Shown one piece after another: positions 1,713-18,525 of a stretch of 64,000 nt of DNA (positions within the stretch are counted from its first letter, which is position 1; every line of letters starts with the position of its first letter). The stretch lies in the NCBI RefSeq assembly GCF_030013205.1, contig NZ_CP122648.1; one strand, 5' to 3'. This DNA is from Escherichia coli. Its GTDB lineage: Bacteria; Pseudomonadota; Gammaproteobacteria; Enterobacterales; Enterobacteriaceae. The position numbers and the translations under genes are program-made. The notes under the pieces were generated by a model that had not been told where the DNA came from, made no database searches, and saw only the letters and a program-made list of their open reading frames with translations.

Positions 1713-2501
1713 TCATAATAATTGCGGCGGCGCAAAGCGACGGTTGTTTAAGACGGGCAGTTGCGCGCGCACCTGACGCACACGTTCGGGCGTCACTTCC
1801 GCCATAATGAGTGCAGGCATTTCTGACGCTGCCGCAATGGTGACGCCAAAGGGATCTATAATCCGGCTTTGCCCGATATTTTTGTTCCCGCACTCCCCCG
1901 CCGCCACCATATAACAGGTGGTATCCAGCGCACGAGCGGCAAGCAACGTTGACCAGTGATGCTCTTTGAGCGGCCCACGAACCCAGGCGGCAGGAAGTAC
2001 CAGGATTTCAGCTCCCTGTAATGCCTGTGCCAGCGCCAGCTCTGGAAAGCGTAAGTCATAACAGGTCATCAGACCGACCTTCATCCCTTCCACCTCCAGT
2101 AACGGAGCTATTTCATTACCAGCATCAACATGGCGTGATTCCTGAATGGCAAATGCATCATAGAGATGCAGTTTGGCATAACGGGCGACGATGTTTCCTG
2201 CCTGTAGCGCCACCAGCATATTCCATGCGCGCCCCGGCGTTGAAGGAACATGAATCGTCAGAATTGTCGTCATCATGTTACGTTTACTTTCTCGCCGTAA
2301 ACGTCCGAGGAATTCGCCTTCCAGCAGCTGTGCTGATTTAACCGATAGATCTGCATCATGATCATCACGCGCCAACAATGCTTCCGGCAGGACAAACAGC
2401 GAAACGTCGTTTTCCGCCGCCTGCGCCATCAACGAGGCACAAATCTCAGCGTTCTTTTCCCACACAGATGTAACAGCAAACTGTCCTGCAGCAACCAGCA
2501 T
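1713..2501 (-). CDS. ybeM: C-N hydrolase (nitrilase-superfamily) amidase, intact
   Basis: 262 aa from the internal ATG, which has a GGAGG Shine-Dalgarno 5 nt upstream; the track ORF begins 2 codons earlier at GTG; uninterrupted frame. Confidence 0.85.
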
Positions 2502-2593: not shown

Positions 2594-2977
2594 GTGTTAC
2601 AACTTCTTTTAGCAGTTTTTATTGGCGGTGGTACGGGAAGCGTGGCGAGATGGCTGTTAAGTATGCGATTTAACCCGCTGCATCAGGCGATTCCGTTGGG
2701 GACGCTGGCTGCAAACCTGATTGGGGCATTCATCATAGGAATGGGATTCGCCTGGTTTAGCAGGATGACGAACATTGATCCAGTGTGGAAAGTATTAATC
2801 ACCACCGGATTTTGTGGCGGTCTAACAACCTTCTCAACATTTTCGGCAGAAGTGGTGTTTTTGTTACAAGAGGGCCGCTTAGGCTGGGCGTTACTGAACG
2901 TTTTCGTCAACCTTTTGGGGTCTTTTGCCATGACCGCACTGGCTTTCTGGCTGTTTTCCGCCTCAACCGCACACTAA
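2594..2977 (+). CDS. crcB: fluoride export channel CrcB (Fluc)
   Basis: 127-aa hydrophobic [19 protein letters not shown]..., GTG start; matches CrcB from memory. Confidence 0.93.
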
Positions 2978-2982
2978 AGACC

Positions 2983-3014
2983 AAAAAAAACCCGCTGATT
3001 AAGCGGGTTTTGAA
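2983..3014. terminator. bidirectional intrinsic terminator between convergent crcB and cspE
   Basis: aaaaaaaacccgctgattaagcgggttttg hairpin with A-run and T-run flanks. Confidence 0.6.
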
Positions 3015-3030
3015 TTCTTGCTGACGTATC

Positions 3031-3240
3031 TTACAGAGCGATTACGTTTGCAGCAGAAGGGCCTTTGGCACCGTTAGTGATTTCGAACTCTACGCGCTGA
3101 CCTTCAGCAAGAGTTTTAAAACCATTAGTCTGGATTGCAGAGAAGTGTACAAACACGTCTTTGCTGCCGTCTTCCGGAGTAATGAAACCGAATCCTTTGG
3201 ACTCATTAAACCACTTAACGTTACCTTTAATCTTAGACAT
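3031..3240 (-). CDS. cspE: cold-shock-domain protein CspE
   Basis: 69 aa from internal ATG ([20 protein letters not shown]...); the track ORF is N-terminally extended. Confidence 0.95.
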
Positions 3241-3414
3241 CAAAATTACCTTTACATGAAAAATAGACACAAATGCTGTGTCGGTTACCAGTACACCAAT
3301 TGTGGTACGCTTTGTCCAGTGCAACTTTACTAAAAAGTGATAAAAGTCGCGTTATTTTTGATGTTAATTATTTTACCCATTGATTTTAAAGAGTTTACTA
3401 AAATTTCATTTGTC

Positions 3415-3975
3415 TCAAAACTGAAAGCGCATCCAGGCAAAGTACACATTGCCATTGTTATAGGTACCCGGAATGTAGGTCATCTGAAAAGTCACTGGAC
3501 CATAACCCACAGAGGCCAATGGCAGTAGAACCGGGAGAGGGATGTAATTCCAGTTATCGCGTGCCGTTACGCCAGCGGTGAATCCCAGTCCTAAATGAAA
3601 ATTTTCATCCGCCAGCGGTCGCCAGGTACTTTCCCATCCGTATCCGGCAATCGGTTCCCATTTGTTCCACGAGTCCTTAAATGCCATGGCATACAGGCCA
3701 TGCCAGTTTCCTTTTTCATCCCAACGCGACTGACCAAAACCGCCACCCCACGGTCGCTCGTTATAGCGATCGGTTTTTTCTTTGTCGTAAGCGAAACGAG
3801 CATGCCAGGTGATGGCAGGAATATATAAATCATAATGTTCAGGCTGTTGCCAGGTTTGTGTAATATTTTCTCCAAACGTTGTCATCCACTCATCTGCGTT
3901 AGCAAAAACTTTACCAACGCTGATTAACTGAATAAAAACAAAGGAAAAGATAGCGACATATTTACTCACGTTCAT
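3415..3975 (-). CDS. pagP: lipid A palmitoyltransferase PagP
   Basis: 186 aa from internal ATG ([14 protein letters not shown]...); matches PagP from memory. Confidence 0.94.
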
Positions 3976-4563
3976 TTGTGACCATAAAACATTTATCAAA
4001 AATCTACTACTAGCATAGCAAAGCTACAATTAACATAACCTTAATAGCCCCAACATAAAGAACAATCTGAATAGCTGCTCTATTTATTTCCGCTTGTTTA
4101 AGTTAAATATTTCCGCGCATCGATTAAAGATGATGTATCGTTTTCTGCGATGGGAATAGTCAAAAAAGAAAAACCAAGTATTTTTTGATGACAAAATGCA
4201 ACCAAGGAAAAATTTCTTTATTTTTTAATTGGATACAAAAATCACCTTAACGAAGAATATAATATATATCGTCAACCCATGCTCATGGCAGATTATTTTC
4301 TGAGCACGCAACCGCAGCTAACACCATTGCTATTAACAAATTTGCATCAATCCGCCATCAATTTACACACATTATTATGTGGTAATTGCCAAACGCTAAA
4401 TATGCGTTTTGTTATCTATGTATAAAAACAGCAACTTCAATGTCTTAATGGCAGTTTTTCTTGATTTTAATCAGCATTCATCGCCAATTTATTGGGCATA
4501 TTTTTTCCTTAAGTTTTAGGAATTTTTTATTATTTACTTTGGGGCCTGGAGACAGGAAAAATT

Positions 4564-5949
4564 ATGCTGACATTCATTGAACTCCTTATTGGGGTTGTGG
4601 TTATTGTGGGTGTAGCTCGCTACATCATTAAAGGGTATTCCGCCACTGGCGTGTTATTTGTCGGTGGCCTGTTATTGCTGATTATCAGTGCCATTATGGG
4701 GCACAAAGTGTTACCGTCCAGCCAGGCTTCAACAGGCTACAGCGCCACGGATATCGTTGAATACGTTAAAATATTGCTAATGAGCCGCGGCGGCGACCTC
4801 GGCATGATGATTATGATGCTGTGTGGCTTTGCCGCTTACATGACCCATATCGGCGCGAATGATATGGTGGTCAAGCTGGCGTCAAAACCATTGCAGTATA
4901 TTAACTCCCCTTACCTGCTGATGATTGCCGCCTATTTTGTCGCCTGTCTGATGTCTCTGGCCGTCTCTTCCGCGACCGGTCTGGGTGTTTTGCTGATGGC
5001 AACCCTGTTTCCGGTGATGGTAAACGTTGGTATCAGCCGTGGTGCAGCTGCTGCTATTTGTGCCTCCCCGGCGGCGATTATTCTCGCACCGACTTCAGGG
5101 GATGTGGTGCTGGCGGCGCAGGCTTCCGAAATGTCGCTGATTGACTTCGCCTTCAAAACGACGCTGCCTATCTCAATTGCTGCAATTATCGGCATGGCGA
5201 TCGCCCACTTCTTCTGGCAACGTTATCTGGATAAAAAAGAGCACATCTCTCATGAAATGTTAGATGTCAGTGAAATCACCACCACTGCTCCTGCGTTTTA
5301 TGCCATTTTGCCGTTCACGCCGATCATCGGAGTGCTGATTTTTGACGGCAAATGGGGTCCGCAATTACACATCATCACTATTCTGGTGATTTGTATGCTG
5401 ATTGCCTCCATTCTGGAGTTCATCCGCAGCTTTAATACCCAGAAAGTTTTCTCTGGTCTGGAAGTGGCTTATCGCGGGATGGCAGATGCGTTTGCTAACG
5501 TGGTGATGCTGCTGGTTGCCGCTGGGGTATTCGCTCAGGGGCTTAGCACCATCGGCTTTATTCAAAGTCTGATTTCTATCGCCACCTCGTTTGGTTCGGC
5601 GAGTATCATCCTGATGCTGGTATTAGTGATCCTGACAATGCTGGCGGCAGTCACGACCGGTTCAGGCAATGCGCCGTTTTATGCGTTTGTTGAGATGATC
5701 CCGAAACTGGCGCACTCTTCCGGCATTAACCCGGCGTATTTGACTATCCCAATGCTGCAGGCGTCAAACCTCGGTCGTACCCTGTCACCCGTTTCTGGCG
5801 TAGTCGTTGCGGTTGCCGGGATGGCGAAAATCTCACCATTTGAAGTCGTAAAACGCACCTCGGTGCCGGTGCTTGTTGGTTTGGTGATTGTTATCGTTGC
5901 TACAGAGCTGATGGTGCCAGGAACGGCAGCCGCGGTCACAGGCAAGTAA
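4564..5949 (+). CDS. dcuC: anaerobic C4-dicarboxylate transporter DcuC
   Basis: 461-aa polytopic membrane ORF, ATG start with GGAGACAGG Shine-Dalgarno; matches DcuC. Confidence 0.95.
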   Translation: MLTFIELLIGVVVIVGVARYIIKGYSATGVLFVGGLLLLIISAIMGHKVLPSSQASTGYSATDIVEYVKILLMSRGGDLGMMIMMLCGFAAYMTHIGANDMVVKLASKPLQYINSPYLLMIAAYFVACLMSLAVSSATGLGVLLMATLFPVMVNVGISRGAAAAICASPAAIILAPTSGDVVLAAQASEMSLIDFAFKTTLPISIAAIIGMAIAHFFWQRYLDKKEHISHEMLDVSEITTTAPAFYAILPFTPIIGVLIFDGKWGPQLHIITILVICMLIASILEFIRSFNTQKVFSGLEVAYRGMADAFANVVMLLVAAGVFAQGLSTIGFIQSLISIATSFGSASIILMLVLVILTMLAAVTTGSGNAPFYAFVEMIPKLAHSSGINPAYLTIPMLQASNLGRTLSPVSGVVVAVAGMAKISPFEVVKRTSVPVLVGLVIVIVATELMVPGTAAAVTGK

Positions 5950-17814: not shown

Positions 17815-18525
17815 GCCATAATAAATATCCTCCGGCATAGCCGGAGGTTTTTCAAATGCGCCTATAAGGCTCTCTTACCAGCCGCGCCCTAACAGGCGCA
17901 CACGATCTGACATTTGCATCCAACTTCGTTACTTACGGCCCGTAAACGGGCTGCCCGGATAGGGAATCGATAACTGCTCTCCCATTTTATCCTCTTCAAG
18001 CTGGTGCTTTATGTAATCCTGTATCTTCGCCGTGTTCTTACCCACTGTATCGACGTAGTACCCTCTGCACCAGAACTCCCTGTTCCTGTATTTGAATTTC
18101 AAATCACCAAACTGCTCGTAAAGCATCAGACTGCTTTTCCCTTTCAGATATCCCATAAACCCGGATACGCTCATTTTGGGCGGGATCTCCACAAGCATAT
18201 GGATATGATCTGCACAGCATTCAGCTTCCAGAATCCGTACGCTTTTCCACTCACACAGCTTTCTCAAAATACTGCCTATTGCTCTACGCTTCTCTCTGTA
18301 GAACACCTGTCTTCGGTATTTTGGCGCAAAAACTATGTGATATTTACAGTTCCATCGGGTGTGCGCTAAGCTCTTTTCGTTCCCCATTGGGACCCCCTTT
18401 TGATTTCTTGTTTGACACTTGCAGTTGCCAGACCGCAAGGTGTTTTAACAAATCAAAAGGGGTTTTAATAACTGGCTCAAAGCTGAAAGCTTTCCGGAAC
18501 CCCCAGCCTAGCTGGGGGTTTTCTG
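17815..18525 (-). mobile_element. IS200-like insertion sequence (IS200/IS605 family); boundaries approximate
   Basis: about 710 bp of extra DNA between the uspG and ahpF terminators; it encodes a 152-aa Y1 (HUH) transposase and has the IS200 left-end hairpin (aacccccagcctagctgggggtt) plus an RBS-proximal structured leader. Confidence 0.75.
17929..18387 (-). CDS. tnpA: IS200 transposase TnpA (Y1 HUH transposase)
   Basis: 152 aa from internal ATG (MGNEKSLAHTRWNCKYHIVFAPKYRR... with the HxH motif in ADHIHML); near-identical to Salmonella IS200 TnpA from memory. Confidence 0.93.
   Translation of the reverse strand: MGNEKSLAHTRWNCKYHIVFAPKYRRQVFYREKRRAIGSILRKLCEWKSVRILEAECCADHIHMLVEIPPKMSVSGFMGYLKGKSSLMLYEQFGDLKFKYRNREFWCRGYYVDTVGKNTAKIQDYIKHQLEEDKMGEQLSIPYPGSPFTGRK

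Follow-up and report, generated by a model that had tools for sequence, protein, structure and literature searches.

The DNA stretch analysed, hereafter the window, comprises 64,000 nucleotides of Escherichia coli. According to the annotation, pagP, coding for the lipid A palmitoyltransferase, occupies positions 3415-3975 on the minus strand, while dcuC, coding for the anaerobic C4-dicarboxylate transporter, is found at 4564-5949 on the plus strand. The divergent spacer between them, delimited by the RefSeq annotation of both genes, extends from 3976 to 4563 and measures exactly 588 bp. Among the 47 intergenic gaps in positions 1-50000 of the window it ranks first in length, followed by gaps of 379 and 371 bp, and its DNA has 31.8% GC, compared with 51.9% in the window. 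These values bear out a first-pass annotation of this DNA, in which the spacer had been described as unusually long and AT-rich. Neither the RefSeq/PGAP genomes nor the curated record of MG1655 contain an annotated feature between pagP and dcuC. A repeat search of the spacer returned just one 10-nt chance repeat and one 11-nt inverted pair. The sequence is 100% identical to that of E. coli strain K_EC180, and a single copy per genome is present in 5381 of 5426 complete E. coli genomes.

Variation within the species was evaluated with nine E. coli spacer alleles, sampled down the similarity ranking. Since these were chosen by spacer divergence, the diversity values derived from them are inflated, whereas population counts are free of that bias. 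For the comparison across genera, a set of 80 pagP loci was used (one genome per species), about 45 of which have dcuC divergently upstream. Spacer length among the latter varies from ~290 to ~1300 bp. The cross-genus alignment revealed conservation restricted to the two promoter-proximal ends of the spacer, plus a block containing ATTAACA.

Occupancy of the spacer in K-12

Published K-12 data were placed on the window by the relation window = 659,755 - x (U00096.2), which reproduced the coordinate of the FNR motif exactly. The H-NS ChIP-chip regions 654,590-655,558 and 655,584-656,283 (PMC3688515) correspond to 4197-5165 and 3472-4171 of the window, respectively, and span essentially the whole spacer as well as the starts of pagP and dcuC. 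Among the sigma70 ChIP-seq peaks listed for anaerobic growth, only two are located in the spacer, at ~4520 and ~4013, with none between them (PMC3688515). In gSELEX experiments, performed in vitro, an H-NS site and RNA polymerase binding were flagged in the spacer, and the hexamers ATGACA-17-AATTAT, directed toward dcuC, were assigned to its middle, at window positions 4188-4216 in K-12 (PMC3946193). It is possible that transcription proceeds from these hexamers under other conditions or in hns mutants.

A simple sigma70 consensus scan of positions 3900-4650 detected no promoter-like site. This fits activator-dependent promoters and gives no positive support for them. Consensus scans for SlyA, H-NS, PhoP and ArcA found no site above mononucleotide shuffles in the AT-rich DNA of the spacer.

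Promoters at the two ends

At the dcuC end, an FNR box, TTGATTTTAATCAG, is located at 4461-4474 on the plus strand and matches TTGAT-N4-ATCAA at 9 of 10 positions. Read as its reverse complement, this box is the FNR motif bound in K-12, CTGATTAAAATCAA at 655,281, and the two K-12 FNR ChIP peaks (655,298 and 655,340) correspond to ~4457 and ~4415 of the window (PMC3688515). A distance of 22 nt separates the box from a conserved downstream hexamer resembling a -10, CATATT (4497-4502, plus strand), which is predicted as the dcuC -10 and contained in the block TTTATTGGGCATATT, and the sigma70 peak near 4520 (655,235 in K-12) coincides with the promoter predicted here. The alignment shows the FNR box and the TTTATTGGGCATATT block to be conserved in genera from Escherichia through Klebsiella and Raoultella, as is the Shine-Dalgarno region GGAGACAGGA (4548-4557, plus strand), located 6 nt before the ATG of dcuC. 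Within E. coli, the dcuC-proximal 138 bp display at least 95% identity in 5386 of 5405 matching genomes. The gene is activated by FNR, with expression ~20-fold higher anaerobically (PMC3688515).

Because the -10 hexamer is placed at 4497-4502, the transcription start of dcuC would lie near 4509 and the centre of the FNR box at about -41.5, which should correspond to a class II geometry. Class II FNR promoters carry TTGAT-N4-ATCAA near -41.5, and dcuCp resembles them in its 9/10 box, which is conserved and FNR-occupied, and in its anaerobic induction. It differs from them in that its -41.5 geometry is deduced from the predicted hexamer and in an extra conserved element ~125 bp upstream. The FNR study carries for dcuC the remark "TSS not in peak region" (PMC3688515), so a different or additional start may be used. 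The supplements of Kim et al. 2012 and of the Shigella M90T study hold no TSS entry for either dcuC or pagP.

At the pagP end, the minus strand contains a predicted -10 hexamer, TATGCT, at 4012-4017, which aligns with the -10 TATTAT of Salmonella pagP. Upstream of it, the block TATGTTGGGGCTATTAAG (4040-4057, minus strand) aligns, at a matching distance, with the footprinted, activating PhoP box of the same Salmonella gene. The consensus for such boxes is a direct repeat, (T/G)GTTTA-N5-(T/G)GTTTA, placed ~23 nt upstream of the -10. In Salmonella the pagP promoter was mapped with S1 and the PhoP box, CTGTTTATAGTTTGTTAAG, was footprinted with DNase 23 nt upstream of the -10 (PMC3335776). The alignment indicated that the block containing GTTAAG and the -10 TATGCT are conserved across genera, so that E. 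coli has the -10 and the GTTAAG half-site at positions orthologous to those of the Salmonella promoter ("architecture IV", Zwir et al. 2012). In contrast to Salmonella, the first half-site of E. coli (TATGTT) is poor; the two half-sites match at only 3/6 and 4/6, which makes the box degenerate, and the region further upstream is not homologous to that of Salmonella. Owing to this poor first half-site, the register of the PhoP box in E. coli is proposed tentatively. The start of pagP would be near 4005, giving a leader of ~30 nt.

Published K-12 data agree with a promoter at this position. The sigma70 ChIP-seq peak at 655,742 maps to 4013, on the predicted -10, and pagP expression is ~3.4-fold higher anaerobically (PMC3688515). 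A pagP-lacZ fusion was 18-fold up in an hns mutant, and inputs from SlyA, RcsB/GadE, PhoP and EvgA have been described (PMC4147861, PMC6106083). The sigma70 peak on the -10, the H-NS occupancy and the 18-fold derepression are those expected for the H-NS-silenced pagP already known for E. coli (SlyA, RcsB-GadE, EvgA-PhoP). A difference from the regulation described in K-12 is that three reported SlyA-like sites were not recovered by a 9/12 consensus scan.

A RpoN peak obtained by gSELEX has been placed in the spacer (PMC8743547). It is located ~80-100 bp from a ChIP-seq sigma54 motif inside pagP (PMC4591121), at window positions 3901-3917. A sigma54 search of the spacer detected no site with the GG-N10-GC core, either in the window or in K-12, and the published peak is better explained by the site inside pagP.

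Conserved element upstream of dcuC

Conservation pointed to one further element, ATTAACA-N6-CATCAAT-N4-CATCAAT, at 4332-4363. Its core, ATTAACA-N6-CATCAAT, covers 4332-4351 and the third repeat reaches 4363. Positions 4332-4353 are invariant in all nine sampled E. coli alleles, and the 56-nt block 4332-4387 aligns without gaps to cryptic Escherichia clades at 77-80% identity, compared with ~40-65% in its surroundings. Across ~30 species belonging to Escherichia, Citrobacter, Enterobacter and Lelliottia, most have ATTAACA at a distance of 121-137 nt before the FNR box (four species have it at ~90-97 nt), and in most species (C/T)ATCA(A/T) follows 6-7 nt after it. Since the distance to the FNR box holds whatever the total length of the spacer (417-911 bp), the alignments indicate that the element travels with dcuC and not with pagP.

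Read on the minus (pagP) strand, the E. coli element consists of direct repeats in 11-bp phase, TGATG / TGATG / TGTTA. Such a layout is typical of response regulators of the OmpR/PhoB type. The 15-bp ArcA consensus, GTTAATTAAATGTTA, also contains direct repeats at 11-bp spacing. When this 15-mer was compared with the spacers, the best match of the entire spacer fell on the element in many relatives. The orthologous elements of several Citrobacter, Enterobacter and Huaxiibacter match at 12-13 of 15 positions, a score reached by 0-10% of shuffles. The E. coli element, on the other hand, matches at only 8/15 by hand count, a chance-level score, the best site of the E. coli spacer reaching 10/15. 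Common to ArcA sites and the element are the 11-bp-phased direct repeats and a conserved TGTTAAT, next to the anaerobic induction of dcuC. An ArcA ChIP study mentions this gene (PMC3798270). The stretch 4332-4363 probably serves dcuC as a binding site for a transcription factor, with ArcA as the leading, though weak, candidate.

Small RNA candidates

The first-pass annotation had proposed that the spacer may contain a small RNA. Such an RNA could be encoded on the pagP strand or on the dcuC strand. For the former there is a Shigella candidate: Ssr31, a ~295-nt RNA predicted between pagP and dcuC on the pagP strand of S. flexneri 2a 301, gave a positive result in RT-PCR alone, without Northern blot or RACE (PMC4782007). 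The in vitro binding of RNA polymerase reported in the spacer (PMC3946193) would also agree with a transcript from this region. The RT-PCR result, however, does not establish a discrete RNA, as read-through or spurious transcripts would score as well.

The remaining evidence argues against such an RNA. A Rfam cmscan of positions 2900-5000 (E ≤ 10) returned only noise in the spacer, with E values of at least 3.6 and scores far below the gathering scores. Folding of 4224-4430 on the plus strand and of 3976-4275 on the minus strand gave no extra stability with respect to shuffles (z = -0.51 and -0.10, respectively). A consensus scan for promoters and terminators found no promoters and two weak plus-strand hairpins, and no terminator-like site on the minus (pagP) strand of the spacer. 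The sole terminator-like hairpin of the plus strand, AAACGC-N7-GCGTTT at 4391-4409, is specific to the type of allele present in the window: the full stem occurs in two of the nine alleles, a C:T mismatch (AACCGC) is found in the other seven, and cryptic Escherichia lack the hairpin. In addition, the middle of the spacer carries no sigma70 ChIP peak in K-12 and, except for one short DNA motif, cannot be aligned beyond E. coli. A small RNA in the spacer is considered improbable. Outside the spacer, the Rfam scan gave a strong match to a cspA-type thermoregulator upstream of cspE, at 2983-3341.

Variation in the middle of the spacer

Variation is unevenly distributed over the central part of the spacer. 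Segment 4061-4175 displayed a diversity of 0.052 among the nine alleles, which is about the neutral rate. Segment 4176-4278, a hypervariable stretch rich in A/T tracts, reached 0.14, about twice the neutral rate (fourfold sites of the flanking genes, 0.05-0.09), and has indels in its A/T tracts. When compared with the window allele over this segment, 3315 genomes were 90-95% identical and 1761 were 80-90% identical, with very few intermediate, which indicates discrete old haplotypes. The segment is not alignable across species; the larger segment 4101-4278 has 41% identity to E. whittamii.

DNA that is lineage-specific, AT-rich and neutrally evolving could be what is left of a gene or mobile element that was lost and has decayed, instead of regulatory or silencing DNA, and other genera do hold unrelated inserts or gene fragments at this place (e.g. 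AcrB-like fragments, Kosakonia locus L066). Nevertheless, neither tblastx nor blastn matched the sequence to the longer spacers present in other genera, there are no repeats or IS ends, and the sequence occurs once per genome. A positionally conserved motif is moreover common to genera whose spacers are otherwise unrelated. Although such an origin is judged unlikely, it would not conflict with a present role of the segment as an H-NS platform.

The 48-codon open reading frame

A 48-codon ORF with an ATG start is present on the plus strand at 4279-4425 (stop included) and begins MLMADYFLSTQPQ. The first-pass annotation had reported its length and strand correctly, with a start near 4291 that is wrong by 12 nt. 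Two further remarks made there hold: the ORF is unannotated, being absent from the RefSeq/PGAP genomes and from the curated MG1655 record, and it lacks a clear Shine-Dalgarno, none being present in the 30 nt upstream, AACGAAGAATATAATATATATCGTCAACCC. The small-protein gene that was implied by that description did not withstand the tests for chance occurrence, ribosome binding site, codon usage, frame, codon position and presence in sister clades, which are described below.

The length of the ORF is expected by chance. When the spacer was shuffled 2000 times with its dinucleotides preserved, 65% of the shuffled sequences contained an ORF of 48 codons or longer, and 44% contained one with an ATG start. 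Codon usage was evaluated by a CAI-like score built from the window's own genes. The ORF obtained 0.475, the lowest value in the window and below that of all 31 annotated genes (minimum 0.548); its GC3 is 0.38. Pfam and NCBIfam searches with both ORF alleles gave no family match, with one sub-threshold hit at E = 0.05.

The frame is open in six of the nine sampled alleles, including that of K-12, and a 1-nt deletion in the other three reduces the product to 18 residues. The start codon is ACG in one sampled allele and GTG in another. A 51-nt probe specific to the deletion allele was found in 1027 of the 5381 spacer-bearing genomes (19%). The ORF haplotype of the window is present at ≥99% identity in only ~5% of the genomes, and 4865 genomes have it at 90-95% identity. 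The 18 variable sites of the ORF are distributed 6:6:6 over the codon positions in the nine alleles, and the pairwise diversity of the segment (0.059) equals that of fourfold sites (0.063 in dcuC, 0.086 in pagP and 0.048 in crcB).

Conservation had been put forward in the first-pass annotation as a check on the ORF, and it is kept neither within E. coli nor in sister clades. Its counterpart in E. whittamii codes for an unrelated product of 37 aa, with a divergence of the segment of 0.37 against 0.42 at the fourfold sites of dcuC and pagP. In Escherichia sp. E1V33 the ATG is replaced by ATA and internal stops are present, and in other genera the region cannot be aligned. The constraint that does exist inside the ORF region falls, according to the alignments, on the DNA motif at 4332-4363 and not on the peptide.

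In the protein collection, the K-12 allele of the ORF is represented by only one 10-member "hypothetical protein" cluster, derived from old GenBank submissions. These automatic calls used four inconsistent starts, giving products of 48, 46, 41 or 32 aa. Neither the coordinates nor the gene names of the ORF are found in the ribosome-profiling supplement of Stringer et al. 2021, which is weak negative evidence. On the basis of its neutral divergence, its broken frame and the inconsistent old calls, the 48-codon ORF is a chance ORF in neutrally evolving DNA and not a gene.

De novo ORFs are known to arise in AT-rich DNA bound by H-NS. This, together with the few old "hypothetical protein" calls and the intact frame in six of nine alleles (one with an ACG and one with a GTG start), speaks for a real, young and lineage-specific small protein, expressed in those E. 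coli lineages that keep the frame. Against it stand the chance length, the missing Shine-Dalgarno and the lowest codon score in the window, the frameshift in 19% of the genomes with changes in the start codon and no codon-position bias, the neutral divergence and the absence from sister clades, as well as the lack of a sigma70 ChIP peak upstream of the ORF in K-12, of an entry in the supplement of Stringer et al. and of annotation in MG1655. Taken together, these results make such a protein very unlikely.

It is likewise highly improbable that the ORF is a dcuC leader peptide (uORF), transcribed from a distal promoter near 4188-4216 with the hairpin 4391-4409 as attenuator, for while the gSELEX-associated hexamers do lie upstream of the ORF in K-12, the hairpin overlaps the 3' end of the ORF and the "TSS not in peak region" remark may indicate a distal start, the distal -10 reads AATTTC in the window allele, a pair of the hairpin stem is lost in seven of nine E. 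coli alleles, neither ORF nor hairpin is conserved in cryptic Escherichia, Citrobacter or Salmonella, all of which retain dcuC with its FNR promoter, no in vivo sigma70 peak exists near 4220, and the peptide contains no run of regulatory codons.

Discussion

The spacer between pagP and dcuC is very probably a shared, H-NS-coated control region with a promoter at each end, and the ORF in its interior arose by chance. The first-pass annotation had foreseen either regulatory sites for both genes or a small RNA. The first part of this proposal was right, and most of these sites are already documented for E. coli K-12; the small RNA is unsupported. The coordinates, composition and conservation given here, and the occupancy by FNR, sigma70 and H-NS, come directly from the present analysis or from published ChIP data.

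The two genes are divergently transcribed and would be regulated independently of each other, sharing the spacer as control region. The pagP end (~3976-4060) would act as a weak sigma70 promoter, with the -10 TATGCT at 4012-4017 and no good -35. Its activity would depend on activators, namely PhoP, with SlyA and RcsB/GadE contributing also as counter-silencers. The dcuC end (~4455-4563) would function as a class II FNR-dependent promoter, with the box at 4461-4474, the -10 at 4497-4502 and a predicted start at ~4509, from which a leader of ~55 nt including the Shine-Dalgarno at 4548-4557 would be transcribed. Three points are inferred: where exactly transcription of both genes starts, in which register the PhoP box lies in E. 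coli, and which factor acts at 4332-4363.

The ~390 bp between both ends are AT-rich and coated by H-NS, which would keep pagP silent. This DNA evolves at or above the neutral rate and therefore accumulates chance ORFs, of which the 48-codon frame is an example. The sole constrained piece of the middle is 4332-4363, at a fixed distance to the FNR box, and a transcription factor that acts on dcuC is most likely bound there. It could be speculated further that this element is a distal operator not described before, and that a response regulator (ArcA or other) uses it to tune dcuC or to counter the spread of H-NS from the pagP side. The haplotypes of 4176-4278 could then represent natural regulatory variation in pagP/dcuC expression among E. 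coli lineages. The operator reading, together with its extension to the haplotypes, is tentative and more likely wrong than right.

As a shared control region, the spacer belongs to a known kind of object, the H-NS-silenced divergent control region with multiple inputs. With other H-NS-bound AT-rich intergenic regions it has in common a GC content of ~30%, H-NS coverage and in vitro polymerase binding without in vivo sigma70 peaks, as well as neutral or faster evolution and the presence of a chance ORF. It differs from them in being located at a core-genome site between two conserved genes and not in an acquired island.

With this analysis a false lead is settled, namely the ORF listed by some pipelines as a "hypothetical protein". 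As by-products, the published K-12 ChIP features were placed exactly on the pagP-dcuC locus, and an upstream element of dcuC conserved across genera was obtained as a candidate cis-element. The wider importance is small, the spacer being an example of how neutrally evolving, H-NS-coated DNA generates chance ORFs.

An intragenic sigma54 site, TTGGTAAAGTTTTTGCT, was located on the minus strand at 3901-3917, inside pagP (3415-3975, minus strand) at about codons 20-25, and corresponds to the site previously detected by ChIP-seq (PMC4591121). In a separate gSELEX study, an RpoN/NtrC peak was allotted to the dcuC/pagP spacer (PMC8743547), and the distance between this peak and the intragenic site is about 80-100 bp. 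A search for the GG-N10-GC core of sigma54 promoters gave no match within the pagP-dcuC spacer (3976-4563). Because the spacer lacks this core, the gSELEX peak is probably the intragenic pagP site at 3901-3917.

The 10-mer AGGAAAAATT, which forms the Shine-Dalgarno region of dcuC (4554-4563), was found a second time at 4205-4214, 349 bp upstream of the dcuC copy. In the window allele no start codon follows this upstream copy, so that the match is probably coincidental, the DNA being AT-rich.

The A/T-tract segment 4176-4278 is hypervariable, occurring as discrete haplotypes among E. coli. When E. coli genomes were compared with the window allele over this segment, 284 displayed an identity of at least 99% and only 12 fell between 95 and 99%, while 3315 were found at 90-95% and 1761 at 80-90%. 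The diversity of the segment was approximately twice that of the fourfold sites of the flanking genes.

In the 90% protein cluster P0010, which holds the 48-aa ORF of the K-12 spacer, one member is 436 aa long and derives from a Logan assembly. Such a length is out of keeping with the other peptides of the cluster (32-48 aa), and the long member is possibly a mis-called fusion.

Elsewhere in the window, a strong match to the Rfam cspA thermoregulator family (2983-3341, minus strand; 119 bits, E = 2e-31) covers the whole cspE region, comprising both the CDS and its 5' leader. An IS200C-type transposase (17929-18387, minus strand) lies between uspG and ahpF in the window strain. The deaminated glutathione amidase gene ybeM (1713-2501, minus strand) is intact in this strain, whereas it is a frameshifted pseudogene in K-12 and in the urinary E. 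coli isolate MINF_8D.

In MINF_8D (locus L004, 3151-4250), an IS1 element was observed 150 bp inside the spacer; dcuC, dpiA and dpiB are absent and citC comes directly next, which suggests that the dcuC side was lost through an IS1-mediated deletion. In some other genera the spacer is longer, as in Kosakonia oryziphila (locus L066), where it reaches 1024 bp, and such spacers contain fragments of unrelated genes, among them ORFs resembling transmembrane segments of RND efflux pumps. The pagP-dcuC position seems to be tolerant of insertions.
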